Positions 11,502 to 58,105 of a stretch of 64,000 nt of DNA are shown here, piece by piece. Position 1 is the stretch's first letter. Each line of letters opens with the position of its first letter. A program made the translations under genes and the position numbers. The notes under the pieces are model-generated. The model did not search any database. It had not been told where the DNA came from and saw only the letters and a program-made list of their open reading frames with translations. Source of the DNA: Escherichia coli (lineage in GTDB: Bacteria > Pseudomonadota > Gammaproteobacteria > Enterobacterales > Enterobacteriaceae); assembly GCF_044324785.1 (NCBI RefSeq), contig NZ_CP172127.1, one strand, 5' to 3'.

Positions 11502-12221
11502 TCAGCGGCTCATCAACACTTCAGCAATATGCATCACTTTGACTTTCTGCCCTTCCCGTTGTAATCGCCCACTGATGTTCAGCAGGCAACTCACGTCAGC
11601 ACCAATTAAATACTCAGGGCGGACTTCCATCAGGTGCGCAACCTTTTCTTTCACCATCTCGCCGGATATTTCGGCCATTTTGACCGAGAACGTGCCGCCA
11701 AATCCGCAGCAGGTATCCTGTTCAGCAAAGGTCAACAGCTCCAGTCCACGCACATTTTTCAGCAGCGTAAGTGGCTCGTCCTTCACCCCCAGCTTACGGG
11801 CCAGGCTACAAGATGGGTGATACACCGCTCTCCCTTGCAAACTGGCACCTACATCGACTACCCCTAATGTATTAACAATAAAAGAGGTGAGATCCTGCAT
11901 ACGCGCGGCAACCTTTTCGGCACGTGATGCCCATTCAGGTTCATCCGCCAGATACGTCGGGTAACTTTTTACGGCATAGGTGCAAGAGCCAGCCGGTGAA
12001 ATAATGGGATCGTCGTTATCCTCCAGTGCGGCGATCAGATTTTTCATCCCTGGAATCGCTTCTTTGATATAACCACTATTGATCGCAGGCTGACCGCAGC
12101 ATCCCTGTTTCTCCGGGAAATTTACGCGACAGCCGAGTTTTTCCAGTAGCAGCACGGAGTCTCGTGCCATTCTTGATTTCAGGGCGTCACCAATACAGGT
12201 GACAAAGAAATTGACATTCAC
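11502..12221 (-). CDS. ykgE: LutA-like cysteine-rich (CCG-domain) oxidoreductase YkgE
   Basis: CCGQP and CCGFGG motifs. 239 aa, the first gene of the operon. Confidence 0.9.
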   Translation of the reverse strand: MNVNFFVTCIGDALKSRMARDSVLLLEKLGCRVNFPEKQGCCGQPAINSGYIKEAIPGMKNLIAALEDNDDPIISPAGSCTYAVKSYPTYLADEPEWASRAEKVAARMQDLTSFIVNTLGVVDVGASLQGRAVYHPSCSLARKLGVKDEPLTLLKNVRGLELLTFAEQDTCCGFGGTFSVKMAEISGEMVKEKVAHLMEVRPEYLIGADVSCLLNISGRLQREGQKVKVMHIAEVLMSR

Positions 12222-12747
12222 AACTAATACTCCATTACTTCATGCCCATTTATGCCCGATGGTTCCCCCCTTCCGGGGGATCAATCATCAATAAATATGG
12301 CGTTCTTTTTTAATTGGCTAGCAACATACCACCCCTCATTTGTATGACAAATGATAATCTTTCATCCAAACTTCAAATGCAATAACTAATTTTATTTCTT
12401 TCGGCATCGCTCACATTTTATAGGGAAATCGACGATCATTTTTGGCATAAGAAATCCATTTAAAAAGGCTACATCCCTTATACCTATTCAGTGCTACTTA
12501 TTCAGGGGTTATTGAGATATACACTGATGGTGTACAAACAAAATCACCAACAATAATTACGTATCAAGTAATAATCGGCATTTTATTTAATTGAAGCAAT
12601 TTAGTTTGCATTTTTATTTAAAAACTGAGCTAGAGTCCATCAGAAAAAATATATAAAGCCCAAACCACCGTTGGAAATAGAAATAGTTGAAAGGCTCACA
12701 ACTCCCGGAATGCGGATTATCTTTGCCCTGATTTCTGGCGGTTTTAT

Positions 12748-45453: not shown

Positions 45454-45690
45454 ATGAAAACTGATCATCATCGTTGTTTTTGTTGCAATAGTAGAATACG
45501 CGTATTTATTCCTCCATCTCTATTAATAACGGCAATAAACTGTTCACTTCACTGATATTTAAAATATACATCCTTTTCAAGCTGTTCAGCGGCGTAAGAA
45601 AAAGTATTAATTATGAATTCGACGATTTAACCATTTCTGGCTGATTGGTAATCATCTGTGATTAATGCTGGTCTATTGATTACGCCAGCA
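45454..45690 (+). pseudogene. degenerate paralogous copy of the ykgR ... rpmJ2 3' end ... terminator locus
   Basis: 45457-45573 aligns with 26155-26270 (about 90 percent identity by eye). 45581-45690 aligns with 26961-27070 (about 70-75 percent). The ykgR-like frame has lost 29 nt after ATGAAA. Confidence 0.7.
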
Positions 45691-46600
45691 CCCTCTCTAG
45701 CTTATTCACCGCCGCCACATACTTCGCCGGATTTTTATCTTTCAGCACCGCCAGATTACGTTGCTTCCAGCGAATAGCCGGAAGATGCTGAATTTCAGGA
45801 TAGCGATACCGCGACCAGTCAGGGCTGTTTTGCTTAAAACTGAGCAAGAACTCGCGATCCAGATCCGTAAGATGTGACTTCAACGCCTGCGGCAGCAAAG
45901 TCGTTACTGACAGCAGCGATTCCAGCGACGTTTCCTGCTGAGTCATCCCCGAAAATTCCTGAGCATACAGCGTCGTGATCCGCTCTGTATCCCAGTTTGG
46001 GGCCAGCAACTCGGCAATGGGGCGGGGATGGCCTGCCAGATAACAAAGAAAACCGTCAAAGATCTCCCGCATCAGTCCCGGTTTCTCCAGCATATTCAGC
46101 ACATCAAACAGATCGCGCGGGTGCTGACGATCAAGCGCTGCGCAGATTTTACCGCCATAAAGATCCGCCAGCGAGACGACACTCATGGTGGTGAAGCCAT
46201 ACTCCATTTCCACACGTTCGCACACAGGCATTTCTGCCGGAGGCAACAACAGCCCGCGCCAGACCGGGCTAACCTCGATCTTAATCTTTGCATCAGCGGT
46301 ATTCACAATGATGCGCTTTTCATCCGCTTTATTTTCCTGCCGAATCGCGGTGATCCCCGGTCTGCCGTTCAGCGATGCAGTAATCCTCTTCAAAGCGTCG
46401 TTGATAGCCGCCAGATCAGTATCGCGATCCGCAAAGCTCTTATACGCCAGATCAATATCCACCGACAGACGGGGAAAATCCTGCACAAACAAATTGATTG
46501 CCGTGCCGCCTTTCAACGCGAAACAGGACTCCTTCGCCACATGCGGCAGAGCAGCCATCAACAGCTTAACCTGCCGGGCATAACTATCACGCAGATCCAT
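45680..46600 (-). CDS. AbiEii/AbiGii-family nucleotidyltransferase toxin (type IV TA / abortive infection)
   Basis: Typical DUF1814 N-terminus FALKGGTAINLFVQDFPRLSVDIDLAY. 306 aa. It overlaps the upstream partner by 14 nt. Confidence 0.85.
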   Translation of the reverse strand: MDLRDSYARQVKLLMAALPHVAKESCFALKGGTAINLFVQDFPRLSVDIDLAYKSFADRDTDLAAINDALKRITASLNGRPGITAIRQENKADEKRIIVNTADAKIKIEVSPVWRGLLLPPAEMPVCERVEMEYGFTTMSVVSLADLYGGKICAALDRQHPRDLFDVLNMLEKPGLMREIFDGFLCYLAGHPRPIAELLAPNWDTERITTLYAQEFSGMTQQETSLESLLSVTTLLPQALKSHLTDLDREFLLSFKQNSPDWSRYRYPEIQHLPAIRWKQRNLAVLKDKNPAKYVAAVNKLERVLA

Positions 46601-47390
46601 CTTCGACTCCTTCCGGTTTAAATGCGCGTGGAACAGTAATTTGATAATCCGGCTCCAGCCAGCCGCCGGGTATGATTTGCCGCTTTCCCGTACCTGTTTC
46701 TATACCGCTTTGATCAATATACTGAAAATAAGGGTGTCCATTACGCCGGGCAAGGTAAAGCATCACCCGGTTGGTTTTAACCGAATGACTGGCGCAGAGT
46801 AACGCCTGCAATTTACGCGGGCTGAGAAGATTCATCCCCTGAAACAGAGCATCGGCATGTTCGAACGATATCAACGAAGGAACGCCGCAGGCGATCTCAT
46901 ACGCGGCCAGTTCCGGGGCACTGCCTGCTAACTGCCGGTCGCCAATTTTCAGTTCCGTAGTCAATGACGTTACATCTACGGTAAGCCCCGATGTATACAG
47001 CGTGATAAATGTTGCAGATTGTTCGAAGGCAGCAAACCATCCCGGCAGCTTAACGTAAGCCGGAAGCGCGAGCCAGACCTGCGGCTTACCCGGTTCGGTA
47101 TAGTGCGCATGGCCCTGAAACGCAAGGCTGGTTAGCCCCGCCACCCGAACAGGCTTTTCCCACTGTGTTTGAAGGCAGTAAACCGCGTCTACCCAATCCG
47201 GCTCACGGCCCGTCCGGCAGTACACGCCGTGAGCGATGCGCCTGAGCCAGCCATTTTGAACATAGAGATAAGAAAGCTTACGATCTACGCCGTTGCGGGT
47301 AAGCCATGACTGGAGCAGCACCTGACCGGGTAGCGTATTTTGCATCAACCAGTTTAGATAGTTTGGCAAATGTCGCTCCTGAATAGACAT
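46587..47390 (-). CDS. AbiEi-family antitoxin / transcriptional regulator
   Basis: 267 aa with an N-terminal winged-helix region containing WLRRIAHGVYCRTG. It lies upstream of, and is translationally coupled to, the nucleotidyltransferase. Confidence 0.8.
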   Translation of the reverse strand: MSIQERHLPNYLNWLMQNTLPGQVLLQSWLTRNGVDRKLSYLYVQNGWLRRIAHGVYCRTGREPDWVDAVYCLQTQWEKPVRVAGLTSLAFQGHAHYTEPGKPQVWLALPAYVKLPGWFAAFEQSATFITLYTSGLTVDVTSLTTELKIGDRQLAGSAPELAAYEIACGVPSLISFEHADALFQGMNLLSPRKLQALLCASHSVKTNRVMLYLARRNGHPYFQYIDQSGIETGTGKRQIIPGGWLEPDYQITVPRAFKPEGVEDGSA

Positions 47391-47652
47391 TAGTAGAAAT
47401 ATTTAAACCAGTGTAGGTTCAGGGATACGCCACAGCAAGAAATAGTTTACTTATTCCTCATTTTGTCTACTTAAAATTGACATTGAGAAAAAAATACAAA
47501 CTTACCTACATTCAGGCAAAGTGCGACAAATAGACTCGGTCGGTTTAAAGAGAACGTGTAACATAGATGCAAATCGAATAGACATTGTTGCCAGCCGTTC
47601 CAAGGTTGTGGGGCGCTGCATGGCCTGAGACGTGATAAATACAGGGAACACA

Positions 47653-50600
47653 ATGAAATTCACTGAAGATACCCGAGTAAAAATCCCCGTCATCCTCCAC
47701 CTGATACGGCTGGGCTACCACTACCTGTCCCTTAAAGAACAACGCTGGGACAAAGAAACCAATATCTTCCCTGACCTCTTCACCGCTGCGATTGGCAGAA
47801 TAAATCCCGGACTTGTGCCAGACGACATCGGACGCCTGTTAAAAGACCTCACGCTGCTTCTCGACAACGATGATCTGGGCCGCGCCTTCTTCGAAAAACT
47901 CAGTGACCGTTCCGGTATCAAACTGATCGACTTTGATAACTTCAACAACAACAGTTTCCATGTCGTCACCGAACTGACCTGCGAAAACGGTGATGAAGAA
48001 TTCCGCCCGGACATCACGCTGCTGATCAACGGCATGCCGCTAATCTTTATCGAAGTGAAAAAACCCAACAATCGGGAAGGCATCGTCGCAGAACGCAACC
48101 GCATCAACGAACGCTTTAAAAACCCCAAATTCAAACGCTTCGCCAACATCACCCAGTTCATGATCTTCTCCAATAACATGGAGTATGACGACAGCGACCC
48201 GGAGCCGATTCAAGGGGCATTCTACGCCAGCAGCTCTTACAGCAACCCGGTATTCAACTACTTCCGCGAAGAAGAACTCTTCAACCTGACCAACTTACTG
48301 AAACCGCTGTCAGAAGAAACCGAAATCGCCGTCCTGAAAGACAACAACCTGGAAGTGATCCGCACCAACCCGGAATTTCAGACCAACAAAGATCACAACC
48401 GCCCGACAAACCGCCTCTGCACCGCGCTGTTGAGCCGGGATCGGCTGGCATTTATCCTGCGCTATGCGCTGGTGTATGTAGCCGAACCGGGCGGCATCCA
48501 AAAACACATCATGCGCTACCCGCAGCTCTTCGCCACCAAAGCGATTGAGCGCAAACTGAACGCTGGCGTGAAAAAAGGCATTATCTGGCACACCCAGGGC
48601 AGTGGGAAAACCGCATTGGCATACTACAACGTGCGCTTCCTGACAGATTACTTCCAGAATCAGCAGGTGATCCCGAAATTCTACTTTATTGTCGATCGTC
48701 TTGATCTGCTCCAGCAGGCGCAGCGTGAATTCACCGCCCGTGGCTTAATCGTTCACCTTATCGACTCCCGCGAAGCCTTCACCCGCGATATCAAAGCGAC
48801 GCAGGCGCTGCACAACCACCACGGCAAAGCGGAAATCACCGTCGTCAACATCCAGAAATTCCGCGATGACCCGGATGTCGTCACCACCAAAGACTACGAC
48901 ATCAACATCCAACGCGTGTACTTCCTCGATGAAGTCCACCGCAGCTACAACCCCAAAGGGAGCTTCCTGGCGAATTTAAGCCAGTCGGACACCAACGCCA
49001 TCAAAATTGGCCTGACCGGTACGCCTCTGCTGGGCACAGACTACAACTCCCGCGACCTCTTCGGCGACTACATCCACAAATACTACTACAACGCCTCCAT
49101 TGCCGACGGCTACACGCTGCGCCTGATCCGTGAAGAGATCGCCACCAACTACCGGATGATCCTGCAACAGGCGCTAAAAGACGTAGAAGTCAGAATGGGC
49201 GATGTGGATCGCAAAGACATCTACGCCCATCCCAGTTTCGTCAAACCGATGCTGAACTACATCGTCACCGACTTTGCCAAAAGCCGGGGCGCACTGAATG
49301 ATGACACCATCGGCGGCATGGTGATTTGCGACAGCTCAGAACAGGCCAAGCAGATGTTTGAGATATTCAACACTGACTACGCCGAATCGCCCACCGCTGC
49401 CGATGACGTCGCCGAAGAAATGCCGGTATTACAGGCCGCAGAGCCTGCCGCCGTTTACCAGATCCACGCCAAAGAAACGCGGAAAATCAAACGCGCCGCC
49501 CTGATCCTGCACGACGTCGGCAGCAAGCAGGAGCGCAAAGAATGGGTGGATCAATTCAAAGCGGGCGAGATTGACCTGCTGTTCGTCTACAACATGTTGC
49601 TCACGGGCTTTGACGCCAAACGGCTAAAAAAACTCTACCTCGGGCGGGTGATCAGAAAGCACAACCTGCTCCAGGCGCTGACCCGCGTCAACCGAACCTA
49701 CAACCACTTCCGCTACGGCTATGTGGTGGACTTCGCCGACATCCGCCAGGAATTTGACGCCACCAACAAAGCCTACTTCGAAGAGCTACAGGCTGAACTG
49801 GGCGATGAAATGGAGCATTACTCCCGCCTGTTCAAATCAGCGGATGAGATTCGCGAAGAAATCGAACATATCAAAGACGTTCTGTTTAGCTTCGATACCG
49901 AAAACGCGGAAATCTTCACTGACCAGATAAACCAGATCCATGACCGGGAAACCGCGCTGGTACTGAAAAACGCGCTGGCCGACGCCCGCAGCCTGTACAA
50001 CCTGATTCGCCTCCAGGGCAACACTGAGTTTCTCCAGGCGCTGGATTTCAACAAACTCAACATCCTTTACCGCGAAGCCAGCCGCCGCCTCGACTTACTC
50101 AACCTGAAGGCGGATCTGGAACAGGGTGTTGACCTCTCCGGCCTGCTGAACCGGGCGCTGGAAGAGGTGATCTTTGAATTCCACAAAGTGGGCGAAGAAG
50201 AGCTGGTACTGGCCGACGAGCTGAAAGAGACGCTGCGCCGCACCCGCGAAGCGCTGGCCGCCAACTTCGACCAGCAGGACCCGCAGTTCGTCAGCCTGAA
50301 AGACGAACTGGAGCGTCTGTTTAAGAAAAAGAAACTCAGCGAAGTCACCCAGCAAGAAATGGTTGCGAATATCGGCACACTCAATAAAATTCATGGCCGC
50401 ATCAAAGAGCTAAACCGCCAAAATAACCTGCTGCGCCAGAAATACCGTGGCGACGTGAAATACGCGCGTACCCACAAACGCCTGCGCGAGCGCGGCGGCC
50501 TGAGCGAGCCGGAGCGTAAAATCTTCGAAGCACTGCTTGGCGTTAAGCTGGATGCGGATGAAAAAGTGCTGAATAACAGCCAGATACTGAACAACGAAAG

Positions 50601-50751
50601 CTATTTTGAGCGGCAGATTGTGTCATGTGTACTCGATCACTTTGAACAACAGCAGCACATCACCCTGAGTGCGAAAGCGGCTGGCGACATCAACCGCCTG
50701 ATTGTGGCGGAATACCTGAACGAATTTAATACCGGAGCACGTACGTGGTAG
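47653..50751 (+). CDS. hsdR: type I restriction enzyme R subunit HsdR
   Basis: N-terminal PD-(D/E)xK nuclease motif (RPDITLLINGMPLIFIEVKK), and helicase motifs GSGKT and DEVH. Start at ATG 47653 (MKFTEDT). Confidence 0.9.
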   Translation: MKFTEDTRVKIPVILHLIRLGYHYLSLKEQRWDKETNIFPDLFTAAIGRINPGLVPDDIGRLLKDLTLLLDNDDLGRAFFEKLSDRSGIKLIDFDNFNNNSFHVVTELTCENGDEEFRPDITLLINGMPLIFIEVKKPNNREGIVAERNRINERFKNPKFKRFANITQFMIFSNNMEYDDSDPEPIQGAFYASSSYSNPVFNYFREEELFNLTNLLKPLSEETEIAVLKDNNLEVIRTNPEFQTNKDHNRPTNRLCTALLSRDRLAFILRYALVYVAEPGGIQKHIMRYPQLFATKAIERKLNAGVKKGIIWHTQGSGKTALAYYNVRFLTDYFQNQQVIPKFYFIVDRLDLLQQAQREFTARGLIVHLIDSREAFTRDIKATQALHNHHGKAEITVVNIQKFRDDPDVVTTKDYDINIQRVYFLDEVHRSYNPKGSFLANLSQSDTNAIKIGLTGTPLLGTDYNSRDLFGDYIHKYYYNASIADGYTLRLIREEIATNYRMILQQALKDVEVRMGDVDRKDIYAHPSFVKPMLNYIVTDFAKSRGALNDDTIGGMVICDSSEQAKQMFEIFNTDYAESPTAADDVAEEMPVLQAAEPAAVYQIHAKETRKIKRAALILHDVGSKQERKEWVDQFKAGEIDLLFVYNMLLTGFDAKRLKKLYLGRVIRKHNLLQALTRVNRTYNHFRYGYVVDFADIRQEFDATNKAYFEELQAELGDEMEHYSRLFKSADEIREEIEHIKDVLFSFDTENAEIFTDQINQIHDRETALVLKNALADARSLYNLIRLQGNTEFLQALDFNKLNILYREASRRLDLLNLKADLEQGVDLSGLLNRALEEVIFEFHKVGEEELVLADELKETLRRTREALAANFDQQDPQFVSLKDELERLFKKKKLSEVTQQEMVANIGTLNKIHGRIKELNRQNNLLRQKYRGDVKYARTHKRLRERGGLSEPERKIFEALLGVKLDADEKVLNNSQILNNESYFERQIVSCVLDHFEQQQHITLSAKAAGDINRLIVAEYLNEFNTGARTW

Positions 50752-50909
50752 AACTGTAATTTAGAGATAAAACCAAAACCCTGATCGACAGCCTGAAAAG
50801 CATCTGTGCGAACTACGGCCTGGGCAACGACGGTAACGAATTCAAAATTATCACTCAGGCATTCCTGTACAAATTCCTGAACGACAAATTCGCCTTTGAA
50901 GCCAAAAAG

Positions 50910-52382
50910 GTGGATAAAAGCATCGCCAGCGCCGAAAAATGGGAAGTCGCGCTCAATCAGATGAGCGAAGAACAGCGGGATAAACTGCAACTGAAGATGA
51001 GCGCCGACACTGCGCGTCTGAAGCCGCATCACTTCATTCAGTATTTATACAACCGTCAAAATGAGGCCAATTTCGCCACCACCTTTGACGACACCCTGAT
51101 GGACATCGCCGCCACCAACAACGACGTCTTCGCGGTCAAAACTGACGGCGGCGCGAAAGTGGTGCTGTTTGAGCGCCTCAGCCAGTACATCGCCGACGAA
51201 TCAAGGCGCGACGACTTCTGCCGCGCCATTATCAACAAACTGGCCGATTTCAGCTTCGAGCGCATCTTCACGCAGAAATTCGACTTCTACGCCACTATCT
51301 TTGAATACCTGATCAAAGACTACAACAGCAACTCCGGCGGCAAATACGCGGAATACTATACGCCCCACGCCGTGGCGCGCATCATGGCGGAAATCCTGGT
51401 GCCGAAAGCACAACAGGGCGTAGTGCGCAACGTAAGCTGTTACGACCCGTCCGCCGGTTCCGGCACCTTACTGATGAACGTGGCGCACGCCATCGGGGAA
51501 GATCGTTGCAGCATCTTCGCGCAGGACATCTCGCAGAAATCCTCCAGCCTGCTGCGCCTGAACCTGATCCTCAACAATCTGGTGCATTCGATCCCCAACG
51601 TGATTCAGGGCAACACCATTCTGCACCCGTTCCACAAGGACGGCAGCGCGCTGAAACGCTTTGACTATATCGTCTCTAACCCGCCGTTTAAGATGGATTT
51701 CAGCGATTTCCGCGACGATTTGGATAGCAAGGAAAACCAGCAACGTTTCTTTGCCGGGATACCAAAAATCAAAGCCAAAGCCAGGGACAAAATGGAAATT
51801 TACCAGTTGTTCCTGCAACACATCATTTTCTCGCTGAAACCGGATGGTAAGGCGGCGGTCGTGGTGCCGACCGGGTTTATCACCGCGCAGTCGGGCATTG
51901 ATAAAGGGATTCGCGAACATCTGGTGAAAAACAAGATGCTGGCGGGTGTGGTTTCCATGCCGTCGAATATCTTCGCCACCACCGGCACTAACGTATCGAT
52001 CCTGTTTATTGACGCCAGCAACAAAGAGAAAGTGGTGCTGATCGACGCCTCGAATTTAGGTGAAAAGGTCAAAGACGGCAAAAACCAGAAAACGGTGCTG
52101 ACCGAAGAAGAAGAGCAGCGCATCTGCGAAGTGTTCAACAACAAGTGGAGCGAAGAGGATTTCTCGGTGGTGGTCAGCTATGACGAGATCGCCGGGAAAA
52201 ATTACTCGTTCAGCGCCGGGCAGTATTTCGATGTGAAAATTGAATACACCGATATGACGCCGGAACAGTTTGCCGCGAAGATGAACGGGTTTACGGAGAA
52301 TCTGGAGAGTTTGTTTAGCCAGTCGCGCGAGCTGGAGGTGGAGATTAAAAAGCAGATGGCGGGGCTGAATTTCCATGGTTAA
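50910..52382 (+). CDS. hsdM: type I R-M methyltransferase subunit HsdM (start codon problematic, see findings)
   Basis: AdoMet motif DPSAGSGTLL and catalytic NPPF. The reading frame is open and HsdM-N-like from 50760, but the first canonical start is GTG 50910. Confidence 0.8.
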   Translation: MDKSIASAEKWEVALNQMSEEQRDKLQLKMSADTARLKPHHFIQYLYNRQNEANFATTFDDTLMDIAATNNDVFAVKTDGGAKVVLFERLSQYIADESRRDDFCRAIINKLADFSFERIFTQKFDFYATIFEYLIKDYNSNSGGKYAEYYTPHAVARIMAEILVPKAQQGVVRNVSCYDPSAGSGTLLMNVAHAIGEDRCSIFAQDISQKSSSLLRLNLILNNLVHSIPNVIQGNTILHPFHKDGSALKRFDYIVSNPPFKMDFSDFRDDLDSKENQQRFFAGIPKIKAKARDKMEIYQLFLQHIIFSLKPDGKAAVVVPTGFITAQSGIDKGIREHLVKNKMLAGVVSMPSNIFATTGTNVSILFIDASNKEKVVLIDASNLGEKVKDGKNQKTVLTEEEEQRICEVFNNKWSEEDFSVVVSYDEIAGKNYSFSAGQYFDVKIEYTDMTPEQFAAKMNGFTENLESLFSQSRELEVEIKKQMAGLNFHG

Positions 52383-53493
52383 AACTATTGGTGATGCTTG
52401 TAATATTAGTACAGGTAAACTTGATGCAAACCAGGCTGTAAAAGGTGGTGATTATCCGTTTTTTACGTGCGCAGAGTTCCCTGAACAAATCGATCATTAT
52501 GCATTTGACGGCGATGTGGTTCTTATTGCTGGCAATAATGCAAGAGGAAACTTTCACGTAAGCAGGTATCAAGGGAAATTTAATGCTTACCAGCGAACCT
52601 ATGTGCTTACAGCCAAACATGGTTATGATATTGATTATATTTACTATGCCTTAAGACTTGAATTAAAGCGATTGCGAGAAAAATCTCAAGGCTCGCAAAC
52701 AAAGTTTCTGACAATGCCGATTTTGACCAGTATATCGCTAGGAAACCTAGTCGAGACTGAACAATCGACAGTTTCAAGAGTATTAAAAATACTGGATAAA
52801 AAAATCGCTCTCAACAATCGTATCAACGCCGAGCTGGAAGCGATGGCGAAAACACTGTATGACTACTGGTTTGTACAGTTTGATTTCCCTGATGCCAACG
52901 GAAAACCGTATAAAACCTCCGGCGGGAAGATGGTGTACAACGCCACGCTGAAACGGGAAATTCCGGCGGGGTGGAATATTAAAAATCTTGGCGATATAGC
53001 GGAACTATATCAGCCTAAGACCATTTCAGGTAACGATTTTATTGATGATGGTGAATATCTTGTATATGGAGCCAACGGTATTGTAGGAAGATTCAATAAA
53101 TATAACCATGAAGAACCTGTCGTTACAATCACCTGCCGTGGAAATACGTGCGGCAATATAAACGTCACACGACCATATTCATGGATTACAGGGAATGCAA
53201 TGGTGGTTAAGCCAAAGTTTAACTATATTTCACCTTATTATATTTATAATTTATTGTCGATATCGGAAGTTGATAAAGTCATTACTGGCTCTGCTCAACC
53301 TCAAATTACGCGAGCAAACCTAGCTCCACTTAAGGTTGTTGAACCAGCAGAGGACATTACGCAAAAATACTCAAAGTCTGTTGATGCTTTTTTTAAAAAG
53401 CATATCTCAATATTAGATGAAAATGATAATTTATTAAAACTCCGCGACTGGCTCCTCCCCCTGCTTATGAACGGACAGGTCACGGTCAAATAA
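52375..53493 (+). CDS. hsdS: type I R-M specificity subunit HsdS (two target-recognition domains)
   Basis: Its ATG overlaps the hsdM stop. It has two low-GC TRDs separated by the conserved spacer LDKKIALNNRINAELEAMAKTLYDYWFVQFDFP, and a conserved C-terminal LRDWLLPLLMNGQV. Confidence 0.85.
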   Translation: MVKTIGDACNISTGKLDANQAVKGGDYPFFTCAEFPEQIDHYAFDGDVVLIAGNNARGNFHVSRYQGKFNAYQRTYVLTAKHGYDIDYIYYALRLELKRLREKSQGSQTKFLTMPILTSISLGNLVETEQSTVSRVLKILDKKIALNNRINAELEAMAKTLYDYWFVQFDFPDANGKPYKTSGGKMVYNATLKREIPAGWNIKNLGDIAELYQPKTISGNDFIDDGEYLVYGANGIVGRFNKYNHEEPVVTITCRGNTCGNINVTRPYSWITGNAMVVKPKFNYISPYYIYNLLSISEVDKVITGSAQPQITRANLAPLKVVEPAEDITQKYSKSVDAFFKKHISILDENDNLLKLRDWLLPLLMNGQVTVK

Positions 53494-53632
53494 TCCCCGC
53501 CGTGTTTTGCGAGGCGCATTCCAGATCCACATTGCGCCGCGCTCACCGCTGTAAAACCGCTTGCCGTTCATAACCGATCGAAGTATCTTTCTCCCGCGCC
53601 TGCAAAATCAGGCGTCGGGATTAGCCTCCTGA

Positions 53633-53645
53633 AAACCGTTACAGG
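53633..53645 (+). promoter_or_regulatory. upstream target repeat (seqA-like) of the antisense RNA
   Basis: AAACCGTTACAGG; its CGTTACAGG is complementary to RNA loop nt 53739-53747. A GATTAGCCTC repeat (53619-53628) precedes it. Confidence 0.55.
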
Positions 53646-53700
53646 CGACACTTGACGCACCAGCGTCTTTTTTGTGTCGTGCGTTCGGCTACACCTCAAT

Positions 53701-53782
53701 GGCGGGCCGGGCGGGGGCGTCGCAAGACGCGCCGGTTTCCTGTAACGCCGGTAAGGCTAACCCCGTCCGGTTCCGCCACCCA
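53701..53782 (+). ncRNA. tRNA-like antisense regulatory RNA of the phage P1 C4 / P4 CI type
   Basis: Hand-folded structure. The long terminal stem pairs 53701-53716 with 53761-53777 (one bulge). A GCAA-tetraloop hairpin spans 53717-53730. A second hairpin (53731-53752) has a 12-nt loop, UUUCCUGUAACG. The 3' tail is ACCCA. The loop is complementary to both flanking repeats. Confidence 0.6.
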
Positions 53783-53813
53783 TGAGATTAGCCTCTCTAG
53801 TGGCGGACATAAT

Positions 53814-53829
53814 AAACCGTTACAGGAGA
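53814..53829 (+). promoter_or_regulatory. downstream target repeat (seqC-like) overlapping the SD of the 156-aa ORF
   Basis: CGTTACAGGAGA (53818-53829) can pair with all 12 loop nucleotides (one G-U pair). It contains AGGAG (53824-53828), 7 nt before ATG 53836. Confidence 0.55.
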
Positions 53830-53835
53830 TGCCCT

Positions 53836-54306
53836 ATGGCTACAATCCTCACCCCTGACTGCGATTTACTCGATCTGTTATCCGTTCCCTTCAATGCCAC
53901 CACGGATTTTACTGTCCTTGCCGATTACTGCACCCGCTTCGCCGAAACCCTGATAGAAACCGACGATCCCGCGCTGCGGCTGGCGCTGAGCGGACGGCTT
54001 CACGCGGCTCTTGCGCTACTGCAACCCACACTGCATGACCCCATCCCGCCGCATCTTACCGAAAGCCTGACCGTTAATACCCTTCCCGCCACACCAGAGC
54101 ACTTTATTTCCGAACCCGATTCCTTGTGCGAATACTGCCTCGCACTGCTCCAGCTTCTGCTGGAACGCCCGGCGGAGCCAAAAATGGAGCAAACCCTGAC
54201 CGGGCTGCTGTGTGAGCTGGTCTGGAATTTCACGGAAGGACTCAAATCCCCGCGCTGGCTGCGTACCGCCGACGGCGTAAAATTTATCAGTGAGGTGGCC
54301 GCATGA
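53836..54306 (+). CDS. hypothetical acidic Leu-rich protein, 156 aa, no recognisable domain
   Basis: ATG with a good SD. It starts [15 protein letters not shown]... No TM segment or signal peptide. Its stop overlaps the start of the next (broken) gene. Confidence 0.6.
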
Positions 54307-54449
54307 TGCAACAGGACTGGCATTCCACCGACATTATCGCCACGCTGAAAAAGCGGGGAACGTCTCTGGCGGCGCAGAGAAAAACTCATTGCGGACGCGC
54401 TGTAAATATCGTCAGAAATCATCTGGCCTTCAAGGTACTTTGATAGCAA
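54303..54449 (+). pseudogene. Ner/Nlp-like small DNA-binding protein, internally deleted and interrupted
   Basis: The N-terminus [24 protein letters not shown] resembles Ner/Nlp. The characteristic C-terminus (S)EI(I)WPSRYF appears only in another frame, after a stop. Confidence 0.55.
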
Positions 54450-54451
54450 AG

Positions 54452-54655
54452 GCAAGCAGGCTGGTTCAGTCCCGTGTTTCTCTTCTTGCATTTTCAGAAA
54501 TGGGAGGCTGGGAGTCTATCGAAATGGTTCGTCGATATGCTCACCTCGCACCTAATCACCTTACCGAACACGCACGGCAAATAGACTCGATCCTGAACCC
54601 ATCGGTCCCAAATTTGTCCCAGTCAAAAAATAAGGAAGGTACTAATGATGTGTAA
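54452..54655 (+). pseudogene. C-terminal ~67 codons of a lambdoid (P22-type) tyrosine integrase
   Basis: [37 protein letters not shown] contains the catalytic-Tyr box (RYAHL). There is no N-terminal or core domain upstream. It ends 14 nt before the att core. Confidence 0.75.
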
Positions 54656-54669
54656 CTTATTGATTTAAA

Positions 54670-54715
54670 TGGTGCCGATAATAGGAGTCGAACCTACGAC
54701 CTTCGCATTACGAAT
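54670..54715 (-). other. 46-nt 3' fragment of tRNA-Thr (thrW): attachment-site core, not a functional tRNA
   Basis: The reverse complement reads ATTCGTAATGCGAAGGTCGTAGGTTCGACTCCTATTATCGGCACCA, which is the anticodon loop, T-arm, acceptor 3' strand and CCA as I recall thrW. The 5' half is absent. Confidence 0.75.
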
Positions 54716-55044
54716 CTGTAGAACCAATCATAACTATCTGTTTTAGCAAGCATTAACCGCATTCACCAAGCAATAGTTGATGGCACAAACAGAAAGTTGA
54801 TGCATGATGTTGTCATGTGTATGTCACAAATACGGCACAACGATCTTCAAACATGTAGCCACCCAGCATAGAAGAGCACAAATCCTTGCAATCCAGTGCA
54901 AAGCTTTGTGTACCTTAGTTTTGTCTCATAGGTAATTCTGCTTTAACTGCGATGCAGGAATCTGTCACCAGACGCACGTCTCGTTGTTTTATGGTTTTCC
55001 GTTCATGATTAATATGTTAGCTTGTCAAAGTTTGTGTTTAAGAT

Positions 55045-55716
55045 ATGGTGATTGATGCAATGTTAAGCGTTCAGATGACTCCACAAGCAAAAGTTAGCTT
55101 CGAGGAGCAATGTTTTTTTCATGCTTCATGTCTTGTTGTTGCCCCAATAAATGTTGGAGCATTCTCCTACTTTGGCGCTAATTGTATGCTCGGCGGCTTT
55201 ACGATGGGTAGATTTTGTTCAGTTGCTCCAGGAGTAAAAATTGGCCTTGGCGAGCATGAAACTGGGTATTTTTCTACGCATCCTTTTTTCTTTGGCTCAA
55301 AAAATGGTTTTAAAATCCCTGATGGTATAGGAATGCAACGCGACCTCTCTCAACAGAAGCATGGTATACCAAGAATTGGTCATGACGTATGGATAGGTGC
55401 AAATGCGGTTATCAGGCGAGGTATAACTATTGGTACTGGCGCTGTTATTGCTGCTGGCGCTATTGTCACCAAAAATGTCGATCCATATTCAATCGTAGGT
55501 GGCGTTTCTGCAAAACACCTAGGGTACAGATTTGAGGAATCAATCATCAAAGAGTTACTGGATAGCCAATGGTGGGAATATGATTTAAGCTCATTTATTG
55601 GGATTGATACAAGGACACCGACGACTTTTTTAGAGCAGTTTAATGCTGTAAAAGATAAAAAGAAGGCATCTTATAAGAGATTTACAATTCTTCCATCCGG
55701 TGAAATTGTTGAATAG
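55045..55716 (+). CDS. XAT-class hexapeptide-repeat acetyltransferase (CatB/Vat-like)
   Basis: [66 protein letters not shown] and the C-terminal [11 protein letters not shown] fit the xenobiotic acetyltransferase pattern. The start codon is uncertain (weak SD). Confidence 0.75.
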
Positions 55717-55735
55717 CGCATCCCTGCGCTATATT

Positions 55736-58105
55736 TTAAATAAACATAAGAATAAACATCAGAAGTTCTTCGTATCTGATACCATACTGATAGCCAGCAG
55801 GTTTAATAATAACCTGCCTTCCTGTGTAATATTCCTCGTCGTACCACTCTCCTGTTTCATTGTTTTTAACACTCCTAATCAATACCTCTGGAGCATAAAT
55901 ATCATCCCATTCATCATAACACCAGAACGCATAGTTATTAGGGTCAAGACCGTATTTTCTGAGAATATTACCTACAGTTTGTGCACCAACGCCGAAATGA
56001 ATCCGAGCGCCATCACTCTTGATCTTTACTGCATCTTTAAATTTAAACCTCCAGATATTTTCCTTTATTTCAAGCGCAGCAAGACGCTCTGATTCTGTTG
56101 TTTTCTCGTCAGCCTCAATACGCAATTTCAGCTCTTCATTCGACGTGTTGATACTGCCAGTACCAGCGTATACCTGTGACCATCGAAATGCTGATGTTCC
56201 GTTTGAGTTAACATTATCAACAGTTGGTTTTATAAGGCCAGAAAAATGAGTTTCAGGTGTATTAATATATGTATATGCACCTGCTGTACTACGAGTCCTT
56301 AACTCAAAGCTGTCTATATCAACACCAGTCCTACGAATTATAAGGAAGTTATTTCCTGCGGAACCAGTATCGGTTTGAGTGCTAACAGACAATCCGTTTC
56401 GTGTATCAATACGTATATTCTTCCCGTTCTCCAGCGAAGCAGAATTATGTAGATACAGCGAGTTGTCAGTGTAGAGATTGTGTTTACCTACATTGCTAAA
56501 TGTATAAGTATTGCTTGTGTTATCACTGTTCCTATGGAATTGCTGAAGAGTGTAGGCAGAAGATGCTCCGTATCCATCACAATGGAAATTTCTGCACAGC
56601 TGCAAATCGAATAACAATACGGTGTCAGCATTAATGCTCACATTATTAAAGCATGTTGCAAAGTTGGCACCATACTGTGAATTGGAATCGCCAATCTGTG
56701 CGCACACATCAAGCAAACCAAAAGTTACATTGGTAAAGTTATTTGCATCACCGGCGTCAAGAACAATCCCTTTCTTAGTCCCTGAATACCCTCTGGCAGT
56801 GCCGATCTCAACTCCCTGGAATGAACACACGCGAGCACGACTAAGCTTAAGACCAACCCATTCCAGACCATGATCGTAACCTTTTGCTGCGCGGTGAATA
56901 AACATACCATTCATGATGAGAAGGAATCTGTTATCAAGCCGTACTGGTTCAAGTTGGGCATTAATACCAACATTTGTGCATATACATTCACCATAAGCAT
57001 AACGATTCGTTTCAAATATACGATCATCAGCGTCGTAAATGCCTCGTAATGCCTTGGCGGCATCAATATTAAGCAATGTAAAATATGTCTTCTGCTTAAT
57101 TTCAAAAAAATTTGCAACATTATGCGTTGTGATATCACTCACACGCATTGATAAAATCCCCTCTTCTGGAGCGGTGCGAATGAATCCATCAAGGAACTGT
57201 TCATTATAACTTTTGGCTATCTGATAACATCCAACAGCATCAATGCGTTCGATTGTGAACTGCCAACTATCACCACAGTTAAAAGACCATCTCCAGCCGT
57301 ATTTCTGAGCGAATTCATCATATTCAACATTTGCAGGTTCAGAACAGAAAGATAAAAATCTAAATGTTGGTTTTGGCCTTAGATGGTTAATCCCGGAACC
57401 TCTTGGGGTATATATGGCATTATCTCCATTCCCACCTTTTGTTTTAACTGTAAGGTGACTTAAACCAAATTCAATATCATATTTAGTTGGTGCGGCGAAA
57501 ACAAAGCCGTCTTTTGGTGATGTGGTATTGTCAAACACAATAACCGTTTCACCCTGCCCATCACCGCACATATTTACTGGTGGTATATTAACGGGGCCAG
57601 TCAAACTATATGTTCCAGTTGGCACATATAGTTTTCCACCCTCTCCAATAGCATTTGCCGCTGCAATAAATGCCGCCGTATCATCGTTAACACCGTCACC
57701 TTTCGCCCCATAATGCTGTGGCGTAATTAACAGCATACGGTCAGAAAAAATCTCTGTCCTAAGTTGATCAGGATCGTATTTTAATACATTTGGAAAATAA
57801 AACTGCTGAGTGCCATATGCATCATATACAGCCATAGAATGGCCTTGCACGGTAACGAATTTGGCAATCTGTCCGTTATATACCGGATAACCAGCAGCGT
57901 TAATAATGATTGGTTGAGAAACAGGAACGTGAGAACCGTCTTCGTTCTCTACATAAACCGGAATCTGGTTTTCAGGATTTACCGGGTCAGTGTCAATTTT
58001 ACCGATATAAATTTTTCCATTAGCATTTGCTTTAAACGAGCGAGCTAAAGTGAATAACTGACTTGGTTGTGAAACAACAACATTGGCATTTATTGAATCT
58101 GTCAT
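55736..58105 (-). CDS. tailspike: P22 gp9-type head-binding domain + pectate-lyase-like beta-helix depolymerase + C-terminal intramolecular chaperone (peptidase S74-like) domain
   Basis: The N-terminus [18 protein letters not shown]...[26 protein letters not shown]...[13 protein letters not shown] is nearly the P22 gp9 N-domain. [19 protein letters not shown] is a beta-helix signature. The C-terminal part has NTSNEELK (Ser-x4-Lys) and a chaperone-like tail. Confidence 0.9.

Follow-up and report, generated by a model that had tools for sequence, protein, structure and literature searches.

A widespread new protein family predicted to be gated by a P4/P1-type antisense RNA switch in a non-satellite, non-phage setting

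This study concerns ORF156, an open reading frame (ORF) of 156 amino acids (aa) within a 64,000-nucleotide (nt) stretch of an Escherichia coli genome (RefSeq assembly GCF_044324785.1, contig NZ_CP172127.1). We refer to that whole stretch as the window. ORF156 lies directly behind an antisense RNA switch of a known type, that of P4 and P1, which is here found outside satellites and phages and would gate a novel, widespread protein family. With a probability of roughly 0.6, we read ORF156 as the gene translated first in an RNA immunity switch of the P4 type, a switch that forms the conserved backbone of small tRNA-integrated defense-cargo islands, and its product as an induction-phase effector. 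The window itself holds an orphan yet intact RNA-plus-ORF cassette, left after deletion of the downstream operon. To our knowledge, studies of the C4/CI antisense immunity switch have been confined to P1, P4, and Gifsy-1. The present data extend it to widespread, non-satellite, tRNA-integrated defense-cargo islands and to orphan cassettes, and in both settings the switch would gate a protein family named in no database.

Results and Discussion

ORF156 represents a conserved protein family

The gene under study is placed as follows.

53836–54306, plus strand: ORF156, 156 aa, first translated gene of the RNA-gated operon in the position held by kil in P4; new protein family

A preliminary description, made from the sequence of the window alone, had reported a 156-aa ORF with a good Shine-Dalgarno sequence and an acidic product containing Leu and Cys, with no transmembrane segment and no assignable motif. 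Each of these features was borne out. The Shine-Dalgarno sequence is AGGAG (53824–53828), spaced 7 nt from the ATG. The product has a pI of 4.44, with 22 Asp and Glu against 9 Lys and Arg residues, and contains 31 Leu and 5 Cys. The highest 19-residue Kyte-Doolittle mean is 1.14, so no transmembrane-like segment was found, and searches against Pfam, NCBIfam, PHROGs, and PADLOC returned no match in any of the four. A profile search of Protein Data Bank sequences with ORF156 likewise gave nothing at E ≤ 1.

ORF156 has many relatives. A word-indexed search retrieved 409 homologous clusters, nearly all of 153–156 aa, from Enterobacterales including Escherichia, Salmonella, Klebsiella, Enterobacter, Citrobacter, Dickeya, Pectobacterium, and Brenneria, among others. 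An exhaustive profile search yielded 230 family representatives at 50% clustering. Most homologues are labeled "hypothetical," and a few N-terminally extended calls carry the label "ash family protein." Homologues occur in 1,323 of 5,426 complete E. coli genomes (about a quarter), with up to four copies per genome, and cassettes of differing C4 type can coexist, up to three or four of them in certain genomes. The allele in the window is at most about 96% identical to its closest database protein or E. coli genome; among complete E. coli genomes, the best full-length DNA match to the region is 95.5%. The search for informative domain fusions ended with none: the only fusions are to Phage_ASH, in cases where the called ORF begins upstream and crosses the C4 RNA.

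Conservation as a coding sequence, a check proposed in the preliminary description, revealed purifying selection. Across 60 unique intact coding sequences (~150 codons; Nei-Gojobori method), the median pairwise ratio of nonsynonymous to synonymous substitution rates (dN/dS) was 0.29, and all 562 of 562 informative pairs fell below 1. The existence of a genuine, conserved protein family under purifying selection is thereby confirmed. An AlphaFold2 model built from a 31-sequence alignment (mean predicted local distance difference test score, pLDDT, 84.8; predicted template modeling score, pTM, 0.79) shows a predicted four-helix bundle with long helices at residues 25–41, 45–67, 94–110, and 115–136, together with a short N-terminal helix and a C-terminal β-hairpin. 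No fold match was found for this model. Several candidate relationships were examined and rejected. Antirepressor families (Ant/KilAC/Bro-N/AnrP/Tum) gave no Pfam or PHROGs match, no tblastn match in phage records, and no fold match. P4 ORF151, which is of similar length, reached an hhalign probability of 0.1%.

These data bear directly on whether the ORF156 protein matters at all. ORF156 could conceivably be a leader ORF whose translation is what counts, through antitermination or coupling, with a functionless product. The first 300 nt of the gene are C-rich and G-poor (GC skew −0.23 to −0.49), and the early operon of P4 is spared termination when the kil region is translated (PMC10111431, summarizing Forti 1999); both would fit such a role. 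We nonetheless consider a pure leader role very improbable because of the coding constraint, with a dN/dS of ~0.29 sustained over 150 codons. Also against it are the confidently predicted fold, the conservation of family motifs from RNA-gated copies to a distant LexA-controlled clade (described below), and the persistence of intact ORFs where nothing downstream remains to be regulated.

The RNA switch upstream of ORF156

Between the end of the neighboring cargo genes and the ORF156 start codon, the window contains a complete set of switch elements.

53562–53590, plus strand: PLE-type promoter (−35 TTGCCG, 53562–53567; 17-nt spacer; −10 TATCTT, 53585–53590)
53583–53635, plus strand: c4-a1b1 (Rfam)
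53596–53673, plus strand: isrK, a P4 seqA-like leader RNA (Rfam isrK, 68 bits)
53621–53627, plus strand: box a1, TTAGCCT, upstream C4 target complementary to a'
53637–53645, plus strand: box b1, CGTTACAGG, upstream C4 target complementary to b'
53654–53675, plus strand: intrinsic terminator hairpin and T-run, end of the isrK leader
53695–53783, plus strand: C4, the P4 CI-type antisense immunity RNA (Rfam C4, 79.9 bits; gathering score 45)
53738–53747, plus strand: C4 loop b', TCCTGTAACG, complementary to b1 and b2
53754–53760, plus strand: C4 junction a', AGGCTAA, complementary to a1 and a2
53788–53828, plus strand: downstream C4 targets a2 and b2, complementary to the C4 RNA
53788–53794, plus strand: box a2, TTAGCCT, complementary to a'
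53818–53827, plus strand: box b2, CGTTACAGGA, overlapping the ORF156 Shine-Dalgarno sequence

Both hexamers of the promoter are conserved from locus to locus, and in alignments they match those of P4 PLE (TTGCCT ... TATAGT). A simple consensus scan missed this promoter (8/12 matches), which was recovered by alignment to P4 and relatives. The isrK and C4 RNAs are structural homologues of P4 seqA and the CI RNA (PMC3632133). A covariance model was built from 32 sequences; with it, the window C4 RNA scores 121 bits, and 38 of 64 species-level loci proved to have a C4 RNA directly ahead of the ORF, at a distance of at most 120 nt. Over 44 distinct sequences, the C4 structure is 99.5% paired, and compensatory changes on both sides occur in 15 of its 28 pairs.

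Covariation between the RNA and its targets was then evident in 40 distinct loci. Cognate b' and b2 sequences share a mean of 8.1 contiguous Watson-Crick bases, versus 4.4 for non-cognate combinations. The match between a' and a2 is 7 nt in 38 of the 40 loci, and non-cognate matches are 5 nt or shorter in all but 5 of 1,176 comparisons. The distance from the end of b2 to the ATG is always 8–13 nt. At least 10 types of b' loop and at least 5 types of a' junction exist, and the a2 and b2 targets change in step with them. Among the C4 RNAs of 44 loci, loop and junction types occur in differing combinations, which suggests a combinatorial set of immunity specificities among islands and orphan cassettes. 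Because the C4 loops covary with a2 and b2 at the ribosome-binding site of the ORF, the earlier proposal that the RNA keeps ORF156 silent is strongly supported by comparative sequence evidence. Pairing of the C4 RNA with the ORF156 ribosome-binding site, analogous to P1 c4/icd and P4 CI/seqC, is likewise well supported as a prediction. The clean covariation of loop and target would define many immunity specificities and can be tested through compensatory mutants.

An annotation overlapping the switch deserves mention. The Prokaryotic Genome Annotation Pipeline (PGAP) calls an "ash family protein" coding sequence across the C4 RNA, at 53652–53858 (plus strand) in the window and at 12200–12358 in a related locus (L001). 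The window ORF at this position encodes 68 aa in a frame different from that of ORF156 and has no Pfam match at E ≤ 1e-5; the conservation across 53652–53858 is explained by the C4 RNA that lies there. Certain relatives have the Ash reading frame joined in phase with the ORF156 counterpart (ORF15x), as in P4 eta.

Relationship to the P4, P1, and Gifsy systems

The preliminary description had likened the position of ORF156 to that of the P4 early operon, and the likeness extends to the kil slot itself. In the P4 immunity region, the Rfam trio c4-a1b1/isrK/C4 lies upstream of kil in an order identical to that of the window, and the two share the promoter, the layout of the a and b boxes, and a target that overlaps the Shine-Dalgarno sequence. 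After the CI RNA, P4 reads ...ATTCACAGGAGGctgccatcATGGCTACAACCCTTACCCCC, and the window counterpart reads ...CGTTACAGGAGatgccctATGGCTACAATCCTCACCCCT. The translation initiation region, including the ribosome-binding site, is common to P4 kil and ORF156, as are the first seven codons (MAT[TI]LTP; Kil begins MATTLTPSHP...), but the remaining protein is unrelated. A further link to P4 is the integrase of ORF156-family islands, which is 52–57% identical to P4 integrase.

The differences from P4 are equally clear. P4 kil encodes a 65-aa protein, whereas ORF156 encodes a 156-aa predicted four-helix bundle. Unlike P4, the ORF156 operon continues into a Ner-like gene, an EFASI RNA, and an Integrase_1 recombinase, and the element is a cargo island rather than a satellite. 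P4 Kil is lethal on overexpression and is translated only upon read-through (PMC10111431, summarizing Forti 1999). Membership of ORF156 in the P4 Kil/Eta (Phage_ASH) family was ruled out, as the hhalign alignment covers only the N-terminal 20 residues at 5% probability and there is no Pfam match.

At the position equivalent to ORF156, P1 holds icd/ant. In P1 ImmI, the C4 RNA is processed from the same transcript and masks the ribosome-binding site of the first gene, whose translation is coupled to that of the next. The ImmI regions of P1 and P7 resemble the window in having a C4 antisense RNA (Rfam C4) with a2 and b2 at the first gene; they differ in that the next gene encodes an antirepressor there and a Ner-like helix-turn-helix protein in ORF156 islands. 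No homology of Icd or Ant to ORF156 was detected by tblastn across 50,697 phage records.

The layout is also mirrored in Salmonella Gifsy-1, where a C4-like region (orf45/STnc1160) separates the isrK RNA from a coupled effector (PMC4825925). The gene at the corresponding position encodes the antirepressor AnrP, translationally coupled via an AUGA overlap (PMC4825925). Gifsy-1 differs in that its effector is AnrP and IsrK is an activator, whereas ORF156 is unrelated in sequence and resides outside a prophage. Finally, 186 Tum, the Gifsy GfoA/GfhA proteins, and SulA are LexA-controlled, as the distant ORF156 clade would be, in which a single gene lies behind a −10 element and a LexA box. They show no sequence or fold similarity to ORF156, and the window copy lacks a LexA box.

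The island backbone and its decay in the window

The preliminary description had inferred that ORF156 once belonged to an operon, and intact relatives demonstrate this. In these islands, variable cargo is followed by PLE/isrK/C4, ORF15x, an HTH_35 Ner-like gene, sometimes an HTH_3 gene, the EFASI RNA, an Integrase_1/Phage_int_SAM_2 recombinase of ~294 aa, a convergent P4-type integrase, and a tRNA gene. This backbone occupies the integrase end of small islands whose insertion sites are tRNA genes, pheV and thrW among them, and a complete intact module was mapped in one relative (L002). The ATGA overlap of the ORF15x stop with the HTH_35 start is conserved in islands. The EFASI RNA (RF02957; 11133–11259 in L002 and 8197–8326 in L022) is flanked by the Ner-like gene on one side and the Integrase_1 gene on the other, which makes it a member of the same RNA-gated operon; the window has lost it by deletion.

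Co-occurrence of the RNA and ORF in P4-like satellites or prophages had been put forward as a point to check. A tblastn search of 81 loci found none of P4 alpha, epsilon, orf151, orf106, kil, sid, delta, psu, or cII; the only P4 protein matches were to int, plus one vis-like match. With the core genes alpha, epsilon, sid, delta, and psu absent from both the 81 loci and the window region, membership among P4-like satellites is ruled out. A phage home was likewise rejected: the protein is essentially absent from phage collections, occurring in a single 1.5-kb record of 50,697 phage records and in one of 2.9 million IMG/VR contigs. The family is present in almost no true plasmids, and a plasmid home was rejected as well.

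Downstream of ORF156, the window preserves only remnants of this backbone.

54303–54443, plus strand: Ner/SfsB-like HTH_35 gene remnant (Pfam HTH_35, residues 5–24 only)
54452–54655, plus strand: tyrosine integrase C-terminal fragment (Pfam Phage_integrase and PHROG integrase), last ~68 codons, deletion-fused to the ner remnant
54670–54715, minus strand: 3' end of tRNA-Thr (thrW), 46 nt, att-core copy marking the island end (alignment to the annotated thrW of L001)

As described earlier, the ORF156 stop overlaps the start of a broken Ner-like gene, with ATGA at 54303–54306 (GCATGATG). The gene is judged broken because only its first 24 residues match Ner/SfsB-type HTH_35. By blastn against the intact gene of L023, it carries an internal deletion of ~52 nt and a frameshift, and by tblastn residues 1–24 and 42–67 lie in different frames. 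A deletion in the window removed the atypical recombinase and most of the integrase. The same integrase fragment is annotated by PGAP in E. coli K_EC180, where the same scar adjoins proA. ARAGORN found no complete tRNA in the window.

The operon context raises the prospect that ORF156 is a recombination accessory, a partner of the Ner-like protein serving as a directionality or excision cofactor with the Integrase_1 recombinase and the P4-type integrase. Its start-stop overlap with the HTH_35 gene is conserved, it runs in the same direction as the EFASI RNA and Integrase_1 gene near the integrase and tRNA, and the Integrase_1 protein retains its HxxR box and C-terminal tyrosines. However, the Ner-like gene is downstream in only 16 of the 64 species-level loci, and purifying selection also acts on orphan and LexA-controlled copies, which have no recombinase within 6 kb. 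On this evidence, an accessory role in recombination seems unlikely.

Upstream of the switch lies the cargo.

45680–53493, strand not assigned: island cargo as a whole, upstream of the switch (Pfam); E. coli K_EC180 has the same layout
45680–47390, minus strand: AbiEii/AbiEi (Pfam), cargo
47632–53493, plus strand: complete type I restriction-modification system, hsdR, hsdM, and hsdS (Pfam), cargo

Homology of the window to intact relatives begins at 53560, and everything leftward is cargo. The hsdS gene ends 67 nt before this point, which places the PLE-like promoter where cargo gives way to backbone. Elsewhere, islands carry BrxC/D-, TerB-, AbiE-, and AAA_13-type genes, Rhs and type VI secretion system genes, and toxin-antitoxin systems.

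Given such surroundings, ORF156 might act as a defense trigger or abortive-infection effector, released when an incoming satellite or phage with matching seqA/isrK boxes titrates the C4 RNA. The cassette sits at the edge of defense cargo, both here and in islands with other defense genes, the immunity specificities are many, and isrK/C4 systems have been speculated to protect against satellites (PMC3632133). Yet ORF156 has no PADLOC match, the cargo is variable and includes Rhs and type VI secretion genes, and LexA-controlled copies lack such sensor logic. We regard this as a slim prospect. PADLOC also returned no match for the atypical recombinase or for ORF156 paralogues, and for the Ner-like protein gave only an insignificant mad1 match (E = 0.022, 13 bits).

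Orphan cassettes and alternative modes of control

The ORF is intact in 55 of the 64 species-level loci. In 23 of the 64, the C4 RNA and ORF stand as an orphan cassette between unrelated chromosomal genes, with no Ner-like gene or integrase nearby. We also observed three departures from the arrangement with a C4 RNA in cis.

The first is a clade of nine distant homologues (L066–L069 and L071–L075; 38–44% identity) from Scandinavium, Pluralibacter, Citrobacter, and Enterobacter. These single chromosomal genes have no RNA upstream; what precedes them is a −10 element, TACAAT, together with a LexA box that scores strongly (15–18 of 20 matches) at −31 to −46, for example around 5890–5910 of L066. 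They retain the family motifs of the RNA-gated copies, and the four examined for chromosomal position (L066, L069, L071, and L075) all adjoin apbC. From these predicted sites, the homologues would constitute an unannotated SOS-regulated gene in the four genera, and the predicted LexA box is a second way to hold the gene off until induction. No LexA box was found at the window copy or at any C4-type copy.

In the second departure, seen in four loci (L022, 5841–5925; L045, 5830–5913; L025; and L078), an RNA of the sRNA-Xcc1 family (RF02221) replaces isrK/C4, and the ORF has a different N terminus (MPDF...). Neither the LexA-clade nor the Xcc1-clade relatives match any entry in Pfam, NCBIfam, PHROGs, or PADLOC.

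The third consists of five loci (L026, L044, L053, L057, and L060) with an exact deletion from box a1 to box a2 that took out the C4 RNA, b1, and the terminator; the promoter, one a box, b2, and an intact ORF remain. One of these orphans, L053 of Silvania confinis, has a b2 box matching the C4 loop of L056, a second locus of that genome, which suggests control in trans.

Orphan cassettes bring forward the main rival to our reading, in which ORF156 is a Kil- or Icd-like inhibitor of growth or cell division and the RNA and ORF form a type I-like toxin-antitoxin (addiction) cassette. The slot is that of P1 icd. It is also that of P4 kil, whose product is lethal when overexpressed (PMC10111431), and isrK-like RNAs of P4-like prophages scored as required in transposon-directed insertion-site sequencing of Salmonella Typhi (PMC3632133). 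Orphan cassettes keep the ORF intact, the window kept its cassette as neighbors were deleted, and addiction would explain such survival after island decay. The LexA-controlled paralogues, moreover, resemble SulA-type SOS effectors. Of the features of type I systems, predicted masking of the ribosome-binding site by RNA fits. Against this stand the predicted properties of the protein, which is soluble, 156 aa long, and well folded, unlike small hydrophobic type I toxins; the lack of similarity to Kil past the first seven codons; and the existence of intact copies without a cis C4 RNA. The C4-less copies, having kept promoter and ORF, argue against lethality and weaken this alternative, which we hold to be possible but well short of probable. 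The argument against lethality is itself weak because C4 may act in trans, as the Silvania confinis pair illustrates.

Proposed mechanism

In the mechanism that we favor, transcription from a constitutive PLE-like promoter would yield the isrK/seqA leader together with the C4/CI RNA. Once processed, the C4 RNA would pair via loop b' and junction a' with boxes b2 and a2, and as b2 covers the ORF156 Shine-Dalgarno sequence, ORF156 would be left untranslated. The untranslated, C-rich 5' portion of the ORF, a composition that would be compatible with a Rho entry site, could then permit premature Rho-type termination akin to P4 timm, keeping the operon off. When C4 is titrated or outrun, ORF156 would be translated; in intact islands, this would turn on the overlapping Ner-like gene via AUGA coupling, and transcription would run on through the EFASI RNA to the gene for the atypical tyrosine recombinase. 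We infer both the passage from translational block to termination and the activity of the ORF156 protein from the features described above.

Our best guess is that ORF156 is an induction-phase effector, akin to an antirepressor or inhibitor, that works by binding to a partner protein and is not a lethal toxin. Four considerations make the effector role the most likely. Depending on the lineage, the family appears to be kept off by one of three devices, namely the C4 RNA, the LexA box, and the Xcc1-type RNA. The protein is acidic and helical, without nucleic-acid-binding features. In islands, it is coupled to a small DNA-binding protein, and it persists as an intact single gene.

Several points weigh on the other side. 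The evidence for Rho-dependent termination within ORF156 consists of base composition and the analogy to P4. The isrK RNA of Gifsy-1 activates downstream genes (PMC4825925), and the sign and trigger of regulation could therefore differ from those in P1 and P4. The LexA clade, at 38–44% identity, may differ in role, and where a copy has no C4 in cis, a C4 RNA from another locus of the genome could still repress it.

A bolder variant would make the RNA and ORF an autonomous, new two-part switch, in which a specificity-coded antisense RNA holds back a novel host-directed effector and fires on titration of the RNA by a matching satellite or phage, or on DNA damage in the LexA-box paralogues. We give it little credence at present; if true, it would represent a new infection- or stress-sensing module in defense islands, present in about a quarter of E. 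coli genomes. Returning to the induction-phase effector, the LexA-controlled paralogous clade points to a function linked to induction or stress. The partner of ORF156, once identified, would show what the island does when switched on and why decayed islands retain the cassette.

Features beyond the island end

The end of a P22-like prophage follows the thrW copy, such that 54670–58105 of the window contains the following genes.

55045–55716, strand not stated: hexapeptide O-acetyltransferase, P22-like prophage end
55736–58105, minus strand: tailspike with a P22 head-binding domain, P22-like prophage end

The succession of the thrW 3'-end copy and the P22-like prophage indicates that two elements integrated in tandem at thrW. 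In E. coli relatives, antirepressor and Arc genes are also annotated.
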